Shown piece by piece: positions 8,226 to 45,182 of a stretch of 64,000 nucleotides of DNA (position 1 is its first letter; every line of letters starts with the position of its first letter). The translations under genes and the position numbers were made by a program. A model generated the notes under the pieces. That model saw nothing but the letters and a program-made list of their open reading frames with translations. It did no database searches and was not told the origin of the DNA. Origin of the DNA: a phage; the sequence record PZ452598.1. One strand, 5' to 3'.

Positions 8226-9020
8226 CTACGAATAGGCCCAAACATATCCATAAGCAATTTTGCTTTTTCCAGATATGCACTTTTTAATATTAGACATGCA
8301 TCCTTTAACGGATACAGCTGCGTCTTTAATTCTAGGAAATACTCGTAATAATTTTCCAGTAGTATCATATTGAAATACTGGCACATTTCTTTTCTGAGTT
8401 ATCCCACGTTTAGATTTAGACATTTTTTGTTTAGTTGCATTAGACATCCTAGAGGGCTTTCCTATGTTATCAGAATAATAATATTTCCATTGAAATCCTC
8501 CAGCGGTTTTCCTTTTACCATCTACACATTGTTTAATTGAAGTTGAACAGCTATATGACATATCTTCTGCAGCATCTGTAATACATCTATATTTGCGAAT
8601 AAAATTTCCATTTAAATCATATTGATAAATTGGTTTTCCAGCATTTCGTCTAGCGTTAGACATGTATTTTTTATTATCATCATCTTTCCAGAACTCTTTC
8701 ATGCTTTCCGATATTGAAGAAGATACAGCTGTTTTAATCCATCCATACATTTTATTATTTAGTCTTGTTCCGTCAGAACTATAACACATCATACGAATAG
8801 CTAAAGCCAATTTAGGAAGTCTATAAATTTTAAATAATAATAAATGCGCGGTAAAATGTTCTTCTGGTGTCAAAAGAACTAAATTAGTTTTATCATCTGT
8901 ACCACCCATACATCTAGGAATTATATGATGTGTTTCAGTATAGTATGTCAAAAGACTTTTATCATTGCCTCTGTTTAGTCCTTTTTCGATCAGTAAATTA
9001 TATATGTTTAAATAATTCAT
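8226..9020 (-). CDS. mobB: HNH homing endonuclease (264 aa; mobB-like)
   Basis: HNH motif ETHHIIPRCMGGTDDKTNLVLLTPEEHFTAH; C-terminal tandem NUMOD-like DNA-binding repeats (IKQCVDGKRKTAGGFQWKY / IKKCISGKSKIAYGYVWAY). Confidence 0.6.
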   Translation of the reverse strand: MNYLNIYNLLIEKGLNRGNDKSLLTYYTETHHIIPRCMGGTDDKTNLVLLTPEEHFTAHLLLFKIYRLPKLALAIRMMCYSSDGTRLNNKMYGWIKTAVSSSISESMKEFWKDDDNKKYMSNARRNAGKPIYQYDLNGNFIRKYRCITDAAEDMSYSCSTSIKQCVDGKRKTAGGFQWKYYYSDNIGKPSRMSNATKQKMSKSKRGITQKRNVPVFQYDTTGKLLRVFPRIKDAAVSVKGCMSNIKKCISGKSKIAYGYVWAYS

Positions 9021-12668: not shown

Positions 12669-12786
12669 TTACATTTACCTTTAATTGATTAACCAAGCAT
12701 TGATAAGCACTAAACTATACTGCGAATAAAATTCTGGACCAAAATGAAAAATCATATCATTTATAGTATCCATAATGTAATTCAAT

Positions 12787-13257
12787 TTAATCATGTTTCC
12801 ACACCCCATCGGTATTTGACCAAAGTCGCTGATTATCTGATCCTCGCCACAGCTTTTTGGTCGGAAGATTTTTCTCATACTTCCCATCAATAATAACATC
12901 AACATATTTAAGCATTTCTAGTTGTTTAATATCTTCAAACTTATATCCTGTCCACAACCAGATATCTTTCTCCGGAAATCTTGCTTTAACCCAAGAAACT
13001 AAATTTGAAATCTCTTCTCGGTTCTGTGGATAAAGTGGGTCACCGCCGGTTAAGGTAAGGCCTTGGATATACGATTTGCTTAAATGGGACGCAAGTTCTT
13101 TAACGGTATTCATAGTGAATAACTGTCCGTTACGAGCATTCCAAGTACTACGATTATAACAACCTTCGCATTTATGCAAACATCCAGTGACGAAGAGAAC
13201 GACCCTACATCCAGGGCCGTTAACGAAATCGCATGGATAAATTCTATCATAATTCAT
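12787..13257 (-). CDS. nrdG: anaerobic ribonucleotide reductase activating protein NrdG (156 aa from MNYDRIYPCDFVNGPG)
   Basis: radical-SAM style cysteine cluster CxxxCxxC (GCLHKCEGCYN); host NrdG-like N-terminus; ORF track 184-aa version is an upstream extension. Confidence 0.85.
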   Translation of the reverse strand: MNYDRIYPCDFVNGPGCRVVLFVTGCLHKCEGCYNRSTWNARNGQLFTMNTVKELASHLSKSYIQGLTLTGGDPLYPQNREEISNLVSWVKARFPEKDIWLWTGYKFEDIKQLEMLKYVDVIIDGKYEKNLPTKKLWRGSDNQRLWSNTDGVWKHD

Positions 13258-13879
13258 CTTTATATTTCCAAGTATATCCCTTATGAATAGATTGAATTCC
13301 TTTGCAACATTTATAAACAGCAGAATGAAAAAATCCTGCATTTCTTATTTCAGTTGCTCCAGTTAGTTCTATTGTATTTCCGTCTGGTGAATAGCCAATA
13401 ACCGTTTTGGTGTTAAAGCGATTTCTAGAACTATTTTTGATATGCTCTTTATGATTAGTAGACAAAGTTCTTCCTGTTAGCCCATCAGATATCCTTTTTC
13501 CAAAATCATCAGGAAGAGTTACTTTAGACCTAGCTATGCTCATTAGCTTCTTAGTTTTATCGCTTCTTTTTGCGCCACGCTGATTTTCAAATTTCTTAGC
13601 TTTTGCATACGCGTATTGTGAAGAAGTAACTTTTCTATGCTTACTATTACTCATTATCCAATATGCATCATACATCTTTCCACCATATATTTTAGCCAAT
13701 AAATGGTGAGCAGTATAGTGGGCCTTATAAGTTAAAAATACTAAGTTGTCTAAATCATCTGAACCACCCATACTTCTTGGAATTATATGATGAAGTTCAT
13801 ACCCGGCTTTAGTTTGACGGGGCTTAGATGGGTGTTCAGCAGAATTAACTAGATTTGAATAGATTCTGTCATAATTCAT
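13247..13879 (-). CDS. mobC: HNH homing endonuclease (210 aa; mobC-like) inserted between nrdD and nrdG
   Basis: HNH motif ELHHIIPRSMGGSDDLDNLVFLTYKAHYTAH; C-terminal NUMOD-like repeat; overlaps nrdD stop and nrdG start. Confidence 0.65.
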   Translation of the reverse strand: MNYDRIYSNLVNSAEHPSKPRQTKAGYELHHIIPRSMGGSDDLDNLVFLTYKAHYTAHHLLAKIYGGKMYDAYWIMSNSKHRKVTSSQYAYAKAKKFENQRGAKRSDKTKKLMSIARSKVTLPDDFGKRISDGLTGRTLSTNHKEHIKNSSRNRFNTKTVIGYSPDGNTIELTGATEIRNAGFFHSAVYKCCKGIQSIHKGYTWKYKDEL

Positions 13880-15155
13880 TGGTGCTTAACCCTATGCATG
13901 ATTTCTTTATTTTTACCGAGATTAAATCCGCGTTCGTTCGGATTTCCCAAATAACCACATGTTCTTCTTATGGTATTCATCTTTTTAGGATCAGTTTCTC
14001 CACAAATAGAACAAACAAATCCGTTTTCAGTAGGAGTCATTTCATGGGTACTTCCACATGTAAAACATTTATCTACTGGCATATTAACACCAAAATAATC
14101 TAAATGCTGTGCAGCATAATCCCACACGGCCTCAAGACCTTTTAAGTTATTTTTCATATCAGGAAGTTCAACATAAGAAATGTGACCACCTGTCGCAATG
14201 AAATGATATGGCGCTTCACGAGAAATCTTTTCAAACGGAGTAATATTTTCTTCTACTGAAACATGGAAACTGTTAGTGTACCAGCCTTTATCGGTAACAT
14301 CTTTTACGCTTCCATATTTTTCTGTATCGAGTTTACAGAAGCGATAACACAGGTTTTCAGCAGGAGTCGAATATAAACTAAAAGCAAATCCGGTTCTTTC
14401 AGTCCACTGTTTAAGATGAGCATTCATTTTAGTTAAAATTTCTCGTCCAATATCACGACCGACAAGAATATTCAATTCGTGAATACCAATGTATCCTAAA
14501 GACACTGAACTTCTACCGTTTTTAAATAACTCAATTATGTCGTCATCAGGTTTAAGACGAACCCCGAATGCACCTTCTTGGTAAAGAATAGGAGCAACAG
14601 TAGCTTTAACTCCTTTTAAGGAACTAATTCTACACATCAAAGCTTCAAAACATAAATCCATTCGTTCATTAAATAGCTCAACAAATTTCTGTTCATTGAA
14701 CTGTGTTCCAATATAAGAATCTAACGCGATGCGAGGAAGATTCAGTGTTACAACACCAAGATTATTGCGTCCATCAAGAATTTCATTGCCAGTCGAATCT
14801 TTCCATACGCTCAAGAAACTACGGCAACCCATCGGAGAAACAGGAACAGATGAACCAGTGATAGCTTTATTGTTCTTAGCTGAAATAATATCAGGATACA
14901 TCCTTTTGCTTGCGCACTCTAGAGCAAGCTGTTTAATATCATAGTTCGGATCGTCTTTATAAAGATTAACACCTTCTTCAACGAACATAACAAGCTTAGG
15001 GAAAATAGGAGTTATCCCATCACGACCAAGACCTTTAATACGATTTTTCAGAATTGCTTTCTGAATCATTCGTTCAGTCCAGTCAGTTCCCGTACCAAAT
15101 GTAATTGTTACAAAAGGAGTCTGTCCGTTTGAACTGAATAACGTGTTCACTTCAT
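13876..15155 (-). CDS. nrdD: anaerobic ribonucleoside-triphosphate reductase NrdD, exon 2 (C-terminal 425 codons, glycyl radical domain)
   Basis: ORF lacks ATG; C-terminal glycyl radical motif RRTCGYLG and CxxC...C zinc site (CFTCGS...CSICG); joins in frame to exon 1 across intron giving 605 aa. Confidence 0.85.
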
Positions 15156-16188
15156 CAATGTGTTCAGTAGAGTTCGCTACTTCTCTACCCGTTTATATGA
15201 AACAATGTAATTTGGATAATTGTCATCTAAACACAAATCTTTAATACGACTTGGGTGGAGTTTTAAATCTTTAGCAGCATCCACAAATGATTTATAGATA
15301 TTGTCATTTATTTTAACATATTCTGGGACGGGATGAATTGTTATTTTTATATCTATAACATTTGGATGATTACTAACCTGTTCTTCAGAGCATTTAAGAA
15401 ATTTTGCAGCTGATTTAAAACTTCTAAATTTATTTCCGGATTTTAAAGCTATAGAAACAGTCTTTTTAGCCGTTCTACTACCAATATTATTTTTAACATG
15501 AGCTTCACTTCTACTATTATTTTTATAATGCTCAATCAATTTCTCTCGTATCTTATCTTTATGTTTTAAAGATAAGATTTTACCTTTATGGGCATTACTA
15601 AGTTTTTGCTTATGTTCTTCTGAATCCGGATATTTGTTAAATTTATATCCACCTATAGATTTATTAAGAATAAATTCGTTATTAAAATATTTCCTAATAA
15701 GCATTTCTTCATGTTTAAGGGCCGATTCATAAGAATCAAAAACTTGAAGAATTATCCACTTAGCTTTATAATCTTTAAGCTTTTCTTTAACAAGCTTAGA
15801 TGACGAATTGTATTCTTTCCAATTTGTATCTTTACCATATATAGTTTTGAATTTTTTAAAACCTATATAAAAAGACTTATCAGGAAATCTTACCATATAG
15901 GTAAATGCTACAGAATTGGCAATTTTTAAGCTTTTTCTTAATTTCCATTTCATCGTTTCACCTCGTATTCATATTTATACGAGGATAAACAGCTGCATGT
16001 CACCATGCAGTTCAGACTATATCTTCAACTCTTAGAGTTGTCTGCCGTTTCGGGTCGCTTGACCCTACTCCCTTACATTCATCAGGGATAGTCGTTGGGC
16101 ATTTACAGCTACTGCTGATTTAGCAACGGATTGTCTCAGTGAGAGTTTCCCGTTTTAGGCAGATTTTACATGAGCTTGACTTACGTTA
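15156..16188 (-). mobile_element. group I self-splicing intron (1033 nt) in nrdD carrying an endonuclease ORF
   Basis: exon 1 frame hits stop 2 codons past inferred 5' splice site; P1 pairing exon UAUGAGU with intron GCUCAUG; structured GC-rich core 15960-16188; boundaries inferred from pairing plus frame/length, uncertain by a few nt. Confidence 0.75.
15177..15953 (-). CDS. I-TevII: intron-encoded GIY-YIG-type homing endonuclease (258 aa; I-TevII-like)
   Basis: ORF inside intron 3' of catalytic core; N-terminal FTYMVRFPDKSFYIG motif; basic C-terminal DNA-binding region. Confidence 0.7.
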   Translation of the reverse strand: MKWKLRKSLKIANSVAFTYMVRFPDKSFYIGFKKFKTIYGKDTNWKEYNSSSKLVKEKLKDYKAKWIILQVFDSYESALKHEEMLIRKYFNNEFILNKSIGGYKFNKYPDSEEHKQKLSNAHKGKILSLKHKDKIREKLIEHYKNNSRSEAHVKNNIGSRTAKKTVSIALKSGNKFRSFKSAAKFLKCSEEQVSNHPNVIDIKITIHPVPEYVKINDNIYKSFVDAAKDLKLHPSRIKDLCLDDNYPNYIVSYKRVEK

Positions 16189-16726
16189 ACTCATAAGCTT
16201 GGAATGCATCGTATACGTCTTTTTCTGTTTTAGATTGAGCATAATTCAACGCATCAGCGATTTGCCATTTTTCTGCATCCTCAATATGTTTTGCATAGGT
16301 GCGTTTAACATAAGGAGAAAGTACTTTATCTACATTCGCAAAAGTCGTTCCGCCGTATTGGTGAGAAGCAACTTGCGCAGTAATTTGTGCCATAATTGCA
16401 GTAGCAACTCCAATTGATTTAGGAGTTTCAATCTGCGCATTACCAAGCTTAAATCCGTTTTCAAGCATTCCTTTTAAATCTACTAAACAGCAATTAGTAA
16501 ATGGAAGAGCAGGGGAATAATCAATATCATGCACGTGAATAATTCCGCTTTCATGCGCTTTCATAATAAAAGACGGGACCATATTTTTGGCAATGTGTTT
16601 AGACACAATACCAGCCATAAGGTCCCGTTGAGTTGGAAAAACACGAGAATCTTTATTAGCATTCTCGTTTAAAAGGTCTTTATTAGTTTTATGAATTAAT
16701 CCTTCAATTTCTTTTTCAATTGTCAT
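16189..16726 (-). CDS. nrdD: anaerobic ribonucleoside-triphosphate reductase NrdD, exon 1 (N-terminal 179 codons plus 1 nt)
   Basis: starts MTIEKEIEGLIHKTNKDLL; ATG overlaps gene 49 stop; exon ends ...DAFQAYE. Confidence 0.85.
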
Positions 16727-42381: not shown

Positions 42382-42833
42382 TATGCCCCCTTAAAGCCAA
42401 GAGCTCGTAATCCATCTTCTGTTAGAATTCTAAATTTTATTCCACGCTTTTCAGCTAAAGATTGTGCTGCTTTCCATTTGTCAGTGTTCACAGACCAGGT
42501 ATAAATTTCATTCATAAATCTTTTCTTCGCTGCGGTCGTTAGATGTGCTGGTTTAACTGGTGGTTGTGTTTCTTTTTTAGGTTTTATTTCAATAAAAAAT
42601 TCTTGTCCAGAAGAATCTTTCATCCAAATATCCATGAAGTATCTACGTTTTTTCCCTTCTGCATTACAAAAATAAGGAATTACTGCTGTTTCACTACCCC
42701 ATGCAATAATTTCTGGATTTTTATCTAACCATTCAAAAAAGAATTTTTCCCAATTTGATCTATACGTAATTTTTTTAGGGTCACCTCTATACTTTGATAT
42801 ATTTTTAGGAACCCATTTTCCAGAATATGCCAT
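42381..42833 (-). CDS. 4: head completion protein gp4 (150 aa)
   Basis: 150-aa ORF; stop overlaps gene 2 start; divergent from gene 53. Confidence 0.8.
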
Positions 42834-42844
42834 TGGATTCTCCT

Positions 42845-42852
42845 TATAAATA
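42845..42852 (+). promoter_or_regulatory. late promoter box TATAAATA for gene 53
   Basis: exact TATAAATA 29 nt upstream of gene 53 ATG. Confidence 0.65.
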
Positions 42853-42859
42853 GATAATA

Positions 42860-42867
42860 TATTTATA
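42860..42867 (-). promoter_or_regulatory. late promoter box TATAAATA (minus strand) for gene 4
   Basis: plus tatttata; 27 nt upstream of gene 4 ATG on minus strand. Confidence 0.6.
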
Positions 42868-42880
42868 AACAGGAGGGCCC

Positions 42881-43471
42881 ATGCTCTTTACATTTTTTGA
42901 TCCGATTGAATATGCGGCCAAAACGGTGAATAAAAACGCGCCGACTATTCCTATGACAGATATTTTTAGAAACTATAAAGACTATTTTAAACGCGCTCTT
43001 GCGGGATACCGCTTACGTACTTATTATATTAAAGGTTCACCACGCCCGGAAGAATTAGCAAATGCTATATATGGAAATCCACAGCTGTATTGGGTTTTAT
43101 TGATGTGTAATGATAATTATGACCCGTATTATGGATGGATTACTTCGCAAGAAGCTGCTTATCAAGCATCTATACAAAAATACAAAAACGTAGGTGGAGA
43201 CCAAATAGTATATCATGTGAATGAGAACGGTGAAAAATTTTATAATTTAATATCATACGATGATAATCCATATGTTTGGTATGATAAAGGCGATAAAGCT
43301 AGAAAATATCCTCAATATGAAGGAGCGCTTGCTGCGGTCGATACGTATGAAGCTGCTGTTCTTGAAAATGAAAAACTTCGTCAAATAAAAATAATAGCAA
43401 AATCAGACATCAATTCATTTATGAACGACCTTATACGTATAATGGAGAAATCTTATGGAAATGATAAGTAA
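42881..43471 (+). CDS. 53: baseplate wedge protein gp53 (196 aa)
   Basis: size, position before gene 5. Confidence 0.85.
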   Translation: MLFTFFDPIEYAAKTVNKNAPTIPMTDIFRNYKDYFKRALAGYRLRTYYIKGSPRPEELANAIYGNPQLYWVLLMCNDNYDPYYGWITSQEAAYQASIQKYKNVGGDQIVYHVNENGEKFYNLISYDDNPYVWYDKGDKARKYPQYEGALAAVDTYEAAVLENEKLRQIKIIAKSDINSFMNDLIRIMEKSYGNDK

Positions 43472-45182
43472 TAACCTTAATTGGTTTGTCGGTGTTGTTG
43501 AAGATAGAATGGACCCATTAAAATTAGGTCGTGTTCGTGTTCGTGTGGTTGGTCTGCATCCACCTCAAAGAGCACAAGGTGATGTAATGGGTATTCCAAC
43601 TGAAAAATTACCATGGATGTCAGTTATTCAACCTATAACTTCTGCAGCAATGTCTGGAATTGGAGGTTCTGTTACTGGACCAGTAGAAGGAACTAGAGTT
43701 TATGGTCATTTTTTAGACAAATGGAAAACTAATGGAATTGTCCTTGGCACGTATGGTGGAATAGTTCGCGAAAAACCGAATAGACTTGAAGGATTTTCTG
43801 ACCCAACTGGGCAGTATCCTAGACGTTTAGGAAATGATACTAACGTACTAAACCAAGGTGGAGAAGTAGGATATGATTCGTCTTCTAACGTTATCCAAGA
43901 TAGTAACTTAGACACCGCAATAAATCCCGATGATAGACCGCTATCAGAGATTCCAACCGATGATAATCCAAATATGTCAATGGCTGAAATGCTTCGCCGT
44001 GATGAAGGATTAAGATTAAAAGTTTATTGGGATACCGAAGGATATCCGACAATTGGTATTGGTCATCTTATCATGAAGCAGCCAGTTCGTGATATGGCTC
44101 AAATTAATAAAGTTTTATCAAAACAAGTTGGTCGTGAAATTACAGGAAATCCAGGTTCTATTACAATGGAAGAGGCGACGACTTTATTTGAGCGTGATTT
44201 GGCTGATATGCAACGGGACATTAAATCACATTCTAAAGTAGGACCAGTCTGGCAAGCTGTCAACCGTTCTCGTCAAATGGCGTTAGAAAATATGGCATTT
44301 CAGATGGGTGTTGGTGGTGTAGCTAAATTTAACACAATGTTAACTGCTATGTTAGCAGGAGATTGGGAAAAAGCGTATAAAGCCGGTCGTGATTCATTGT
44401 GGTATCAACAAACAAAAGGCCGTGCATCCCGTGTTACCATGATTATTCTTACGGGGAATTTGGAATCATATGGTGTTGAAGTGAAAACCCCAGCTAGGTC
44501 TCTATCAGCAATGGCTGCTACTGTAGCTAAATCTTCTGACCCTGCTGACCCTCCTATTCCAAATGACTCGAGAATTTTATTCAAAGAACCAGTTTCTTCA
44601 TATAAAGGTGAATATCCTTATGTGCATACAATGGAAACTGAAAGCGGACATATTCAGGAATTTGATGATACCCCTGGGCAAGAACGATATAGATTAGTTC
44701 ATCCAACTGGAACTTATGAAGAAGTATCACCATCAGGAAGAAGAACAAGAAAAACTGTTGATAATTTGTATGATATAACCAATGCTGATGGTAATTTTTT
44801 GGTAGCCGGTGATAAAAAGACTAACGTCGGTGGTTCAGAAATTTATTATAACATGGATAATCGTTTACATCAAATCGATGGAAGCAATACAATATTTGTA
44901 CGTGGAGACGAAACGAAAACTGTTGAAGGTAATGGAACTATCCTAGTTAAAGGTAATGTTACTATTATAGTTGAAGGTAATGCTGACATTACAGTTAAAG
45001 GAGATGCTACCACTTTAGTTGAAGGAAATCAAACTAACACAGTAAATGGAAATCTTTCTTGGAAAGTTGCCGGGACAGTTGATTGGGATGTCGGTGGTGA
45101 TTGGACAGAAAAAATGGCATCTATGAGTTCTATTTCATCTGGTCAATACACAATTGATGGATCGAGGATTGACATTGGCTAA
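43455..45182 (+). CDS. 5: baseplate hub/cell-puncturing protein gp5 with lysozyme domain (575 aa)
   Basis: internal lysozyme domain MAEMLRRDEGLRLKVYWDTEGYPTIGIGHL paralogous to gene e; C-terminal VEGN beta-helix repeats. Confidence 0.95.
   Translation: MEMISNNLNWFVGVVEDRMDPLKLGRVRVRVVGLHPPQRAQGDVMGIPTEKLPWMSVIQPITSAAMSGIGGSVTGPVEGTRVYGHFLDKWKTNGIVLGTYGGIVREKPNRLEGFSDPTGQYPRRLGNDTNVLNQGGEVGYDSSSNVIQDSNLDTAINPDDRPLSEIPTDDNPNMSMAEMLRRDEGLRLKVYWDTEGYPTIGIGHLIMKQPVRDMAQINKVLSKQVGREITGNPGSITMEEATTLFERDLADMQRDIKSHSKVGPVWQAVNRSRQMALENMAFQMGVGGVAKFNTMLTAMLAGDWEKAYKAGRDSLWYQQTKGRASRVTMIILTGNLESYGVEVKTPARSLSAMAATVAKSSDPADPPIPNDSRILFKEPVSSYKGEYPYVHTMETESGHIQEFDDTPGQERYRLVHPTGTYEEVSPSGRRTRKTVDNLYDITNADGNFLVAGDKKTNVGGSEIYYNMDNRLHQIDGSNTIFVRGDETKTVEGNGTILVKGNVTIIVEGNADITVKGDATTLVEGNQTNTVNGNLSWKVAGTVDWDVGGDWTEKMASMSSISSGQYTIDGSRIDIG

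Follow-up and report, generated by a model that had tools for sequence, protein, structure and literature searches.

The nrdG-like start of the homing endonuclease gene mobC in phage T4: family resemblance and a probable recombination joint at the nrdD/nrdG junction

Introduction

Some homing endonuclease open reading frames (ORFs) of group I introns are fused in frame to the upstream exon, as in the yeast mitochondrial cox1 intron ORFs. Among the endonucleases of T4-like phages, MobE begins with the residues MNY and the segH gene is found in the nrdD/nrdG slot of other phages. The primary paper on this 'mobC slot' is reportedly that of Sandegren, Nord and Sjoberg (2005, NAR 33:6203). Wilson and Edgell (2009, PMC2790892) and Edgell et al. 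(2010, PMC2988022) describe mobE as a free-standing, promoterless HNH gene located between nrdA and nrdB, whose start overlaps the upstream stop codon (UAAUGA); its target is a ribonucleotide-reductase gene, and it spreads by gene conversion in which the flanks are co-converted. A strand-specific MobE nick in nrdB was mapped experimentally (PMC2790892). mobC is also listed as an HNH, free-standing, promoterless homing endonuclease gene (PMC2988022); the gene is catalogued and its mobility is textbook T4 biology. Here we analysed mobC in a 64,000-nucleotide stretch of phage DNA (sequence record PZ452598.1), referred to as the window, in which a preliminary description based on the sequence had pointed out that this gene begins with a near-copy of the start of nrdG.

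The comparisons presented below lead us to propose, with a probability of about 0.72, that the start of mobC is a hybrid, produced when recombination during break-repair homing joined the resident nrdG start to an endonuclease start that resembles it. About two-thirds of the 23-nucleotide (nt) near-copy appear to be family-intrinsic resemblance and about one-third the putative recombination joint.

Results

The starts of mobC and nrdG form a direct repeat

Positions 12787-14400 of the window are 100% identical to positions 42446-44059 of NC_000866 and to a dozen other T4 records. The gene under study (13247-13879, minus strand) encodes 210 amino acids (aa) and is 100% identical to T4 mobC (NC_000866 42906-43538), a free-standing HNH homing-endonuclease gene. 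The preliminary description had seen in it a mobile HNH endonuclease gene lying exactly at the nrdD/nrdG junction, which fits both this identity and the relatives without mobC, shorter by 622 base pairs (bp). Downstream lies nrdG (12787-13257, minus strand), which encodes the anaerobic ribonucleotide reductase activase (156 aa; T4 annotation; Pfam Fer4_12, E = 2e-50, and Radical_SAM). Upstream, the 3' end of nrdD, the gene for the anaerobic ribonucleotide reductase (13876-14100, minus strand), is of the resident Tequatrovirus type, with 0-2 mismatches per 30 nt when compared to empty-site AR1, T2 and PST. The nrdD gene ends with ..CAC CAA TGA (ORF end at 13876, stop codon TGA at 13876-13878) and the four letters ATGA are common to its stop and to the mobC start. 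At the other end, mobC reads ..AAA GAT GAA TTA TGA and its stop codon (13247-13249) is located 11 nt inside nrdG. The members of the MobC family usually end with ..GYTWKY plus 0-1 residues in our alignment, and the C-terminal Asp-Glu-Leu of MobC is therefore encoded by read-through into nrdG. T4 mobC possesses neither a leader of its own nor a Shine-Dalgarno-like tetramer, and an in-frame TAA sits 9 nt upstream of its ATG. The 24-bp overlap of mobC with the upstream ORF claimed in PMC2988022, together with a ribosome-binding site 27 nt upstream, disagrees with the sequence and with the RefSeq annotation, both of which give an overlap of 4 nt (ATGA) with nrdD.

MobC and NrdG both begin with MNYDRIY. 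The corresponding starts, ATGAATTATGACAGAATCTATTC (13857-13879) and ATGAATTATGATAGAATTTATCC (13235-13257), are identical at 20 of 23 positions and the two differences within codons 1-7 are both synonymous. The repeat extends to 24 nt (21/24 identical, 88%) with a spacing of 622 bp, and it was the sole direct repeat detected by a repeat search of positions 12700-14100. Its 5' copy (13856-13879, minus strand) corresponds to mobC codons 1-8, the start codon sharing ATGA with the nrdD stop, and follows the same upstream context (caccaATGAATTATGA) as in empty sites. Its 3' copy (13234-13257, minus strand) is the functional nrdG start and is overlapped by the last 11 nt of mobC (..GAT GAA TTA TGA). 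A degenerate pattern allowing up to three mismatches matched only these two sites in the 64 kb, with 0.01 matches expected from shuffles. The coordinates, the common MNYDRIY start, the 20/23 identity and the overlaps given in the preliminary description were all reproduced, and its observation was correct as written.

Most of the similarity belongs to the endonuclease family

The proper null for the similarity between the mobC and nrdG starts is not random sequence but the endonuclease family's own starts. The family statistics were obtained from a scan of IMG/VR viral contigs, which yielded 80 loci, 65 of them with a match beginning at a start codon aligned to residue 1; a word-index protein search gave only 12 homologues. 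An MNY start was found in 46 of the 65 environmental homologues and IY at positions 6-7 in 42 of them. The 12 distant protein-database homologues begin with MNYKKIY, MNYSKIY, MDYCKIY and similar sequences. An alignment including MobB and the homologue from Cronobacter phage leE gave the consensus MNYxKIYxxLIxxA, in which Y3 is invariant and M1 and Y7 are nearly so. NrdG begins with MNY..IYP independently of this family. A phmmer search of every ORF in the 80 environmental loci, with T4 NrdG as query, detected no nrdG homologue within 1.5 kb, which rules out that the MNY start of the family was derived from nrdG.

When the first 23 nt were compared to the T4 nrdG start, the 65 homologues gave 15.6±1.5 matches with a maximum of 18, while mobC gave 20 (z about 3). 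As a within-genome control, mobB (8226-9020, minus strand), which begins with ATGAATTATTTAAACATATAT (MNYLNIY) at an unrelated site, gave 15/23. About 16 of the 23 matches are thus intrinsic to the HNH family. That part of the similarity might be so was only a caveat in the preliminary description; it proved to account for the larger share.

The excess over the family start is found in codons 4-5

The excess of mobC over the family baseline amounts to about 4 nt and is located at codons 4-5 (Asp-Arg, GAC AGA), which are equal to those of NrdG. Asp-Arg at these positions was observed in none of the 65 environmental and none of the 12 protein-database homologues, among which Gln-Lys, Lys-Lys and Gln-Arg dominate. 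The closest relatives of MobC, from phages leE (45% identity; Pseudotevenvirus) and KP27 (Slopekvirus), begin with MNYHKIY and MNYQKIY; their genes lie immediately upstream of nrdG and have their own leader of 28-30 nt. A Shine-Dalgarno-like tetramer is present in 25/65 family members and an ATGA overlap with the upstream stop in 2/65; T4 mobC has exactly the overlap seen in empty sites. The Asp-Arg codons, the missing leader and tetramer and the empty-site overlap indicate that the left boundary of the mobC insert would lie inside the first 5-7 codons and not upstream of the ATG.

These features also bear on a purely coincidental resemblance, in which a complete mobC with a native MNYDRIY start would have been inserted before the nrdG ATG, the ATGA start of the family regenerating the nrdD stop and no nrdG sequence being captured. 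A 622-bp insertion exactly before the nrdG ATG does reproduce the T4 sequence with zero duplication. The family baseline already reaches 15-18/23, mobB begins with ATGAATTAT at its unrelated site, Arg is common at position 5 and Glu occurs at position 4. However, Asp-Arg is found in 0/77 homologues, the closest relatives have His-Lys or Gln-Lys with their own leader, the overlap with an upstream stop is limited to the 2/65 members mentioned above, and the first 9 nt of mobC in Jiaodavirus phages demonstrably come from the resident nrdG (see below). We therefore consider coincidence unlikely.

Empty sites place the mobC start on the ancestral nrdG start

mobC was found in about 32 of roughly 840 T4-like records, at a fixed site and as a presence/absence polymorphism among close relatives. 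Most T4-like coliphages lack the gene, and their junction is shorter by exactly 622 bp. Identity among all 32 mobC records is 95% or more; that of the next relative is 45%. Alignment of the junction with AR1, T2 and SP18 gave the arrangement predicted in the preliminary description: the empty junction reads ..catagggttaaacaccaATGAATTATGATAGA(T/A)TTTATCC.. and nrdG starts directly on the nrdD stop (caccaATGAATTATGATAGA). Where mobC now has its start codon, nrdG thus had its own in the ancestral arrangement; the sequence upstream and the ATGA overlap are unchanged.

We also considered that mobC might have been lost precisely, through recombination between the repeats. A synthetic empty site with T4-type nrdG was used as a query and all 29 full-length hits still hold mobC, giving no evidence of excision.

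A foreign nrdG tract is linked to mobC

An alignment of nrdG from T4, ELT1, AR1, T2, SP18, PST, RB3, Boboto and KP1 revealed that the gene is mosaic. A foreign tract linked to mobC extends from nt 1 to about nt 300 (12958-13257, minus strand); its nt 100-300 (approximately) are of Jiaodavirus type and its nt 1-50 are recoded when compared to every empty-site allele. In T4, nt 100-300 (approximately; NrdG residues 36-99; 12958-13158, minus strand) are about 95% identical to Jiaodavirus KP1 and show up to 18 differences per 30 nt with respect to AR1, T2, SP18, PST and RB3. The nrdD 3' end and nrdG nt 300-471 are of the ordinary Tequatrovirus type. The Jiaodavirus-type tract is present in every mobC-positive Tequatrovirus examined (T4, G2540-3, Pinarejo, HP3, ELT1 and SHFML-11). 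No record containing this tract without mobC was found, the 29/29 records matching the synthetic empty-site query all holding the gene. T4 appears to be the recipient of the mobC cassette. Since the foreign nrdG tract is linked to mobC, the nrdG start now in use, which forms the 3' copy of the repeat, would have come with the cassette and is therefore not a local duplication.

The first 50 nt or so of the mobC-linked nrdG are recoded, with 6 differences from the Tequatrovirus and 13 from the Jiaodavirus empty allele in 51 nt. Such recoding in endonuclease-linked alleles is only suggestive of site-specific cleavage near the insertion, and we infer that the MobC target may lie in the first 50 bp or so of nrdG.

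This mosaic is difficult to reconcile with a target-site duplication, in which a staggered cut would have been filled in on insertion to give 23-24 bp direct repeats that have since diverged. Direct repeats do flank the 622-bp insert exactly, and repeats of the nrdG 5' end likewise lie on both sides of a second endonuclease gene in this slot (see below). Instead of fixed-length repeats derived from one recipient sequence, however, we found that the 5' copy has the allele of the recipient and the 3' copy that of the donor, that the 3' copy runs on without a break into 110-300 nt of donor nrdG and that the repeat length varies (24 nt for mobC, 41 nt for the second gene). Most of the similarity is also present in family members without nrdG nearby, and break-repair homing is not known to create such duplications. 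We thus hold this origin to be extremely improbable. The preliminary description had proposed that the junction sequence was duplicated or captured. Only codons 4-5, the missing leader and the inherited ATGA overlap argue for capture of the resident nrdG start; the greater part of the 20/23 similarity is no trace of a duplication.

A gene-splitting insertion of the type known from Aeh1 nrdA/mobE and T4 39/60 mobA was rejected as well: nrdG is undivided, its 156-aa ORF being complete and its Fer4_12/radical SAM match full, and only 7 codons are repeated upstream.

Transfer of mobC to Jiaodavirus phages

mobC is present in three Klebsiella Jiaodavirus phages, of which Boboto and Wolf_ER13 were examined. 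Their mobC matches that of T4 at all 622 positions except nt 8-9 (ATGAATTTCGACAGAATCTA followed by TTCAAATC). The mobC-less Jiaodavirus KP1 has a 74-aa ORF upstream instead of the nrdD end, and its nrdG starts with ATGAATTTCGACAGAATCTA followed by CCCTTCTG. Nucleotides 8-9 of mobC in the Jiaodavirus phages thus follow the resident nrdG allele and, as they match the KP1 nrdG start, the start of the resident nrdG makes up the first 9-20 nt of mobC there. Because there is no other homology on that side, the left crossover falls within the 11 nt GACAGAATCTA common to T4 mobC and Jiaodavirus nrdG. On the other side, Boboto nrdG is of T4 type to about nt 110 and of KP1 type from about nt 124. Such one-sided co-conversion, here between genera, is characteristic of homing. 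On comparative evidence only, mobC shows the spread by gene conversion with co-converted flanks that characterises the Mob family. Identical mobC copies with co-converted nrdG flanks in two genera are circumstantial evidence that MobC is, or recently was, active, and they narrow the search for its target to the first 50 bp or so of nrdG.

The Jiaodavirus alleles are also informative on a possible homogenisation after insertion, in which ectopic gene conversion, or selection for a shared translational signal, would have made codons 4-5 of the two copies identical. The copies are only 622 bp apart in a highly recombinogenic phage, and the synonymous nature of the two differences in codons 1-7 is compatible with this idea. 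No tract-like pattern is visible, however; the GAC and ATC codons of the 5' copy match the Jiaodavirus nrdG allele and not T4's own 3' copy; and the 5' copy is invariant in all mobC-positive Tequatroviruses though the 3' copies form two haplotypes. On the basis of this invariance and of the Jiaodavirus-type synonymous choices, homogenisation was rejected as very improbable.

Proposed origin of the mobC start

Our observations comprise the structure of the empty sites, the start intrinsic to the family, the nrdG mosaic and the cross-genus transfer with its left joint within nt 10-20; from them we infer the following direction and mechanism for the original mobC event. A donor phage would have passed mobC to the T4 lineage through double-strand-break repair, together with about 300 nt of donor nrdG, the right-hand crossover being placed in nrdG near nt 300. 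The upstream sequence of the donor would have had no homology to nrdD, and the only usable homology on the left would have been the conserved endonuclease start (MNYxKIY, ATGAAYTAY...A.AAT.TA), which resembles the resident nrdG start (MNYDRIY). If this start-to-start resemblance was the only left homology, the joint would therefore fall inside the first 5-7 codons. As a result, mobC would begin at the original nrdG start codon with nrdG-type codons 4-5 (Asp-Arg), would lack a leader or ribosome-binding site of its own and would have inherited the ATGA stop/start overlap with nrdD, so that its translation is probably coupled to that of nrdD. The intact downstream nrdG start would be the donor copy, into which the mobC frame runs for 11 nt. 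More generally, spread of the gene would use nrdG as the right arm and, where the upstream gene differs, the resemblance of about 20 nt between the endonuclease and nrdG starts as the left arm. MobC would act as an active nuclease in this scheme.

Several points weigh against this proposal. mobC exceeds the family by no more than about 4 nt (z about 3), mainly because of two codons. Since Glu-Arg and x-Arg are found at positions 4-5 of family members, a native MNYDRIY start is not impossible. No empty-site Tequatrovirus sequence has the exact 5' copy (GAC AGA ATC). A search of IMG/VR with ATGAATTATGACAGAATCTAYCC for an nrdG allele identical to the 5' copy of mobC gave 0 hits, and the best hit of a 64-nt hybrid query against GenBank phages was the AR1 allele (61/64), which differs only at the three altered positions. 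The donor lineage of mobC is unsampled, and the nuclease activity and the target of MobC are listed as 'ND' and 'unknown' in PMC2988022.

Other endonuclease genes in the nrdD/nrdG slot

About 32 records carry a different, MobD-like HNH gene (here called HNH2, 279 aa) in the mobC slot, in both Tequatrovirus and Jiaodavirus; it is located at L002:822-1661 in Yersinia phage PST and at L095:401-1237 in Klebsiella phage Roth67. Like mobC, HNH2 begins with the resident nrdG start and reads 11 nt into a second nrdG start; unlike in mobC, the capture, here of 41 nt, is unambiguous. Its first 41 nt are nt 1-41 of the resident nrdG (AR1 allele in PST, KP1 allele in Roth67) and encode an N-terminal extension that is missing from homologues elsewhere, which align from residue 23-35 or so. 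The gene ends with ..WKYxNEL and a stop codon read within the recoded second nrdG start (MNYDRIYPCCFVNG allele), and resident-type sequence follows. The recoded nrdG nt 1-41 at the 3' end of HNH2 changes Asp10 to Cys (PCCFVNG). By its sequence, HNH2 is an unambiguous case of in-frame capture of a host start combined with a portable replacement 5' end. HNH2 and MobC are related only over a 60-aa HNH core (38% identity, BLASTP). A C-terminal domain shared by MobC and the PST-type HNH protein was ruled out, as BLASTP aligned the HNH core only.

In RB3 the slot contains a GIY-YIG gene of the segH type, with a divergent nrdD 3' end. This gene (L007:600-700), probably segH, bears the annotation 'segD'. 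The ATG assigned to it comes after the ..KEYIG.. motif, and no in-frame ATG was seen upstream of this motif, which points to either a non-canonical start or a damaged gene. ELT1 and SHFML-11 are recombinants in which mobC lies behind the segH-type divergent nrdD 3' end (..VKHA and stop codon). At this junction, ELT1 (L004:800-840) and SHFML-11 (L012) retain a 16-nt remnant of the T4-type nrdD tail (ggttaaacaccaATG), joined at a shared 9-mer (ATGCATAGG), and the linked nrdG start is the PCC allele. The junction looks like the replacement of one endonuclease gene by another.

The slot upstream of nrdG was observed in three states in Pseudotevenvirus: a 176-aa ORF (leN, L100:423-953), its internally deleted remnant (phi5, L098:231-484) and the MobC-like gene with its own leader (leE, L005:1172-1201). 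In the leE/KP27 lineage, the endonuclease-linked nrdG start is recoded (MNYIRIYN vs MNFDRIYN in empty phi5).

Further features of MobC and of the neighbouring sequence

MobC matches the Pfam HNH domain PF01844 with E = 3.2e-6 and 27.6 bits, above the cutoff of 21.4. The catalytic core, E..HHIIPRSMGGSD..N..LT..H..AH, spans residues 28-58 or so (13706-13798, minus strand), with the Pfam match covering residues 28-50. Residues E28, H30, H31, P34, G38, G39, N45, H54 and H58 are invariant in the MobC family alignment, and the HNH catalytic motif expected of a homing endonuclease of the T4 Mob family is present and intact. No NUMOD hit was obtained for MobC in Pfam at E<=0.01; PF07460 is carried by homologues. 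G.K.S.ETK repeats and a terminal GYTWKY motif are visible in the family alignment.

A 258-aa ORF (15177-15953, minus strand) with weak matches to GIY-YIG, NUMOD1 and NUMOD3 lies between two nrdD-like ORFs (13876-15150 and 16181-16726). We take it to be I-TevII in the nrdD group I intron, in line with known T4 biology.

Inside mobC, a terminator-like hairpin (13310-13339, minus strand; GCAGGATTTTTTCATTCTGC then TGTTTATAAA) is located about 60-80 nt upstream of nrdG, and adjacent to this hairpin stands TATAAATG, which agrees with the T4 late-promoter consensus TATAAATA at 7/8 positions. These elements recall the internal terminator reported in mobE and the promoters of downstream genes that are said to be embedded in mobC (PMC2988022).

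Discussion

Our results provide a caution for the reading of insertion boundaries, as a direct repeat found there may be mostly family-intrinsic sequence and not a footprint. At the nrdD/nrdG junction, endonuclease genes land in the start of a coding sequence without breaking the operon: they take over the host start codon and bring along a substitute for the 5' end. This reuse of the start bears on how endonuclease genes move between phages with different gene neighbours. For genome annotation our results have little consequence, since mobC and its mobility are well known.

A tentative extension, which we consider possible but rather less than evenly likely, is that the endonucleases of this slot use the nrdG 5' end as a portable integration module. 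They would insert in the first 20-41 nt, fuse in frame to the displaced start, take over the upstream coupling and carry a recoded, presumably cleavage-immune 5' end. The MNYxKIY start of mobC would then be a built-in left homology arm of about 20 nt, allowing homing where the upstream gene is unrelated (nrdD in Tequatrovirus, the 74-aa ORF in Jiaodavirus). If true, the likeness of its N-terminus to that of the target gene would be adaptive for the endonuclease and not a coincidence.

The literature consulted contained no statement on the nrdG-like start of mobC, on the mosaic nrdG or on the Jiaodavirus transfers; it did not cover Sandegren et al. 2005, so a prior description is possible. The comparative detail presented here is apparently new, at least to us, and of a familiar kind.

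Like mobE, mobC is a free-standing, promoterless HNH gene of the Mob group whose start codon overlaps the upstream stop. Unlike mobE, mobC starts where the downstream host gene has its start codon, and a mapped nick is available for MobE only. The comparison with the intron-encoded endonucleases that are fused to their upstream exon is equally instructive. In both situations the translation start and the first codons of the host gene are borrowed by the endonuclease. For mobC, however, neither intron nor splicing is involved, and the host gene stays intact because the cassette brings a second copy of its 5' end.

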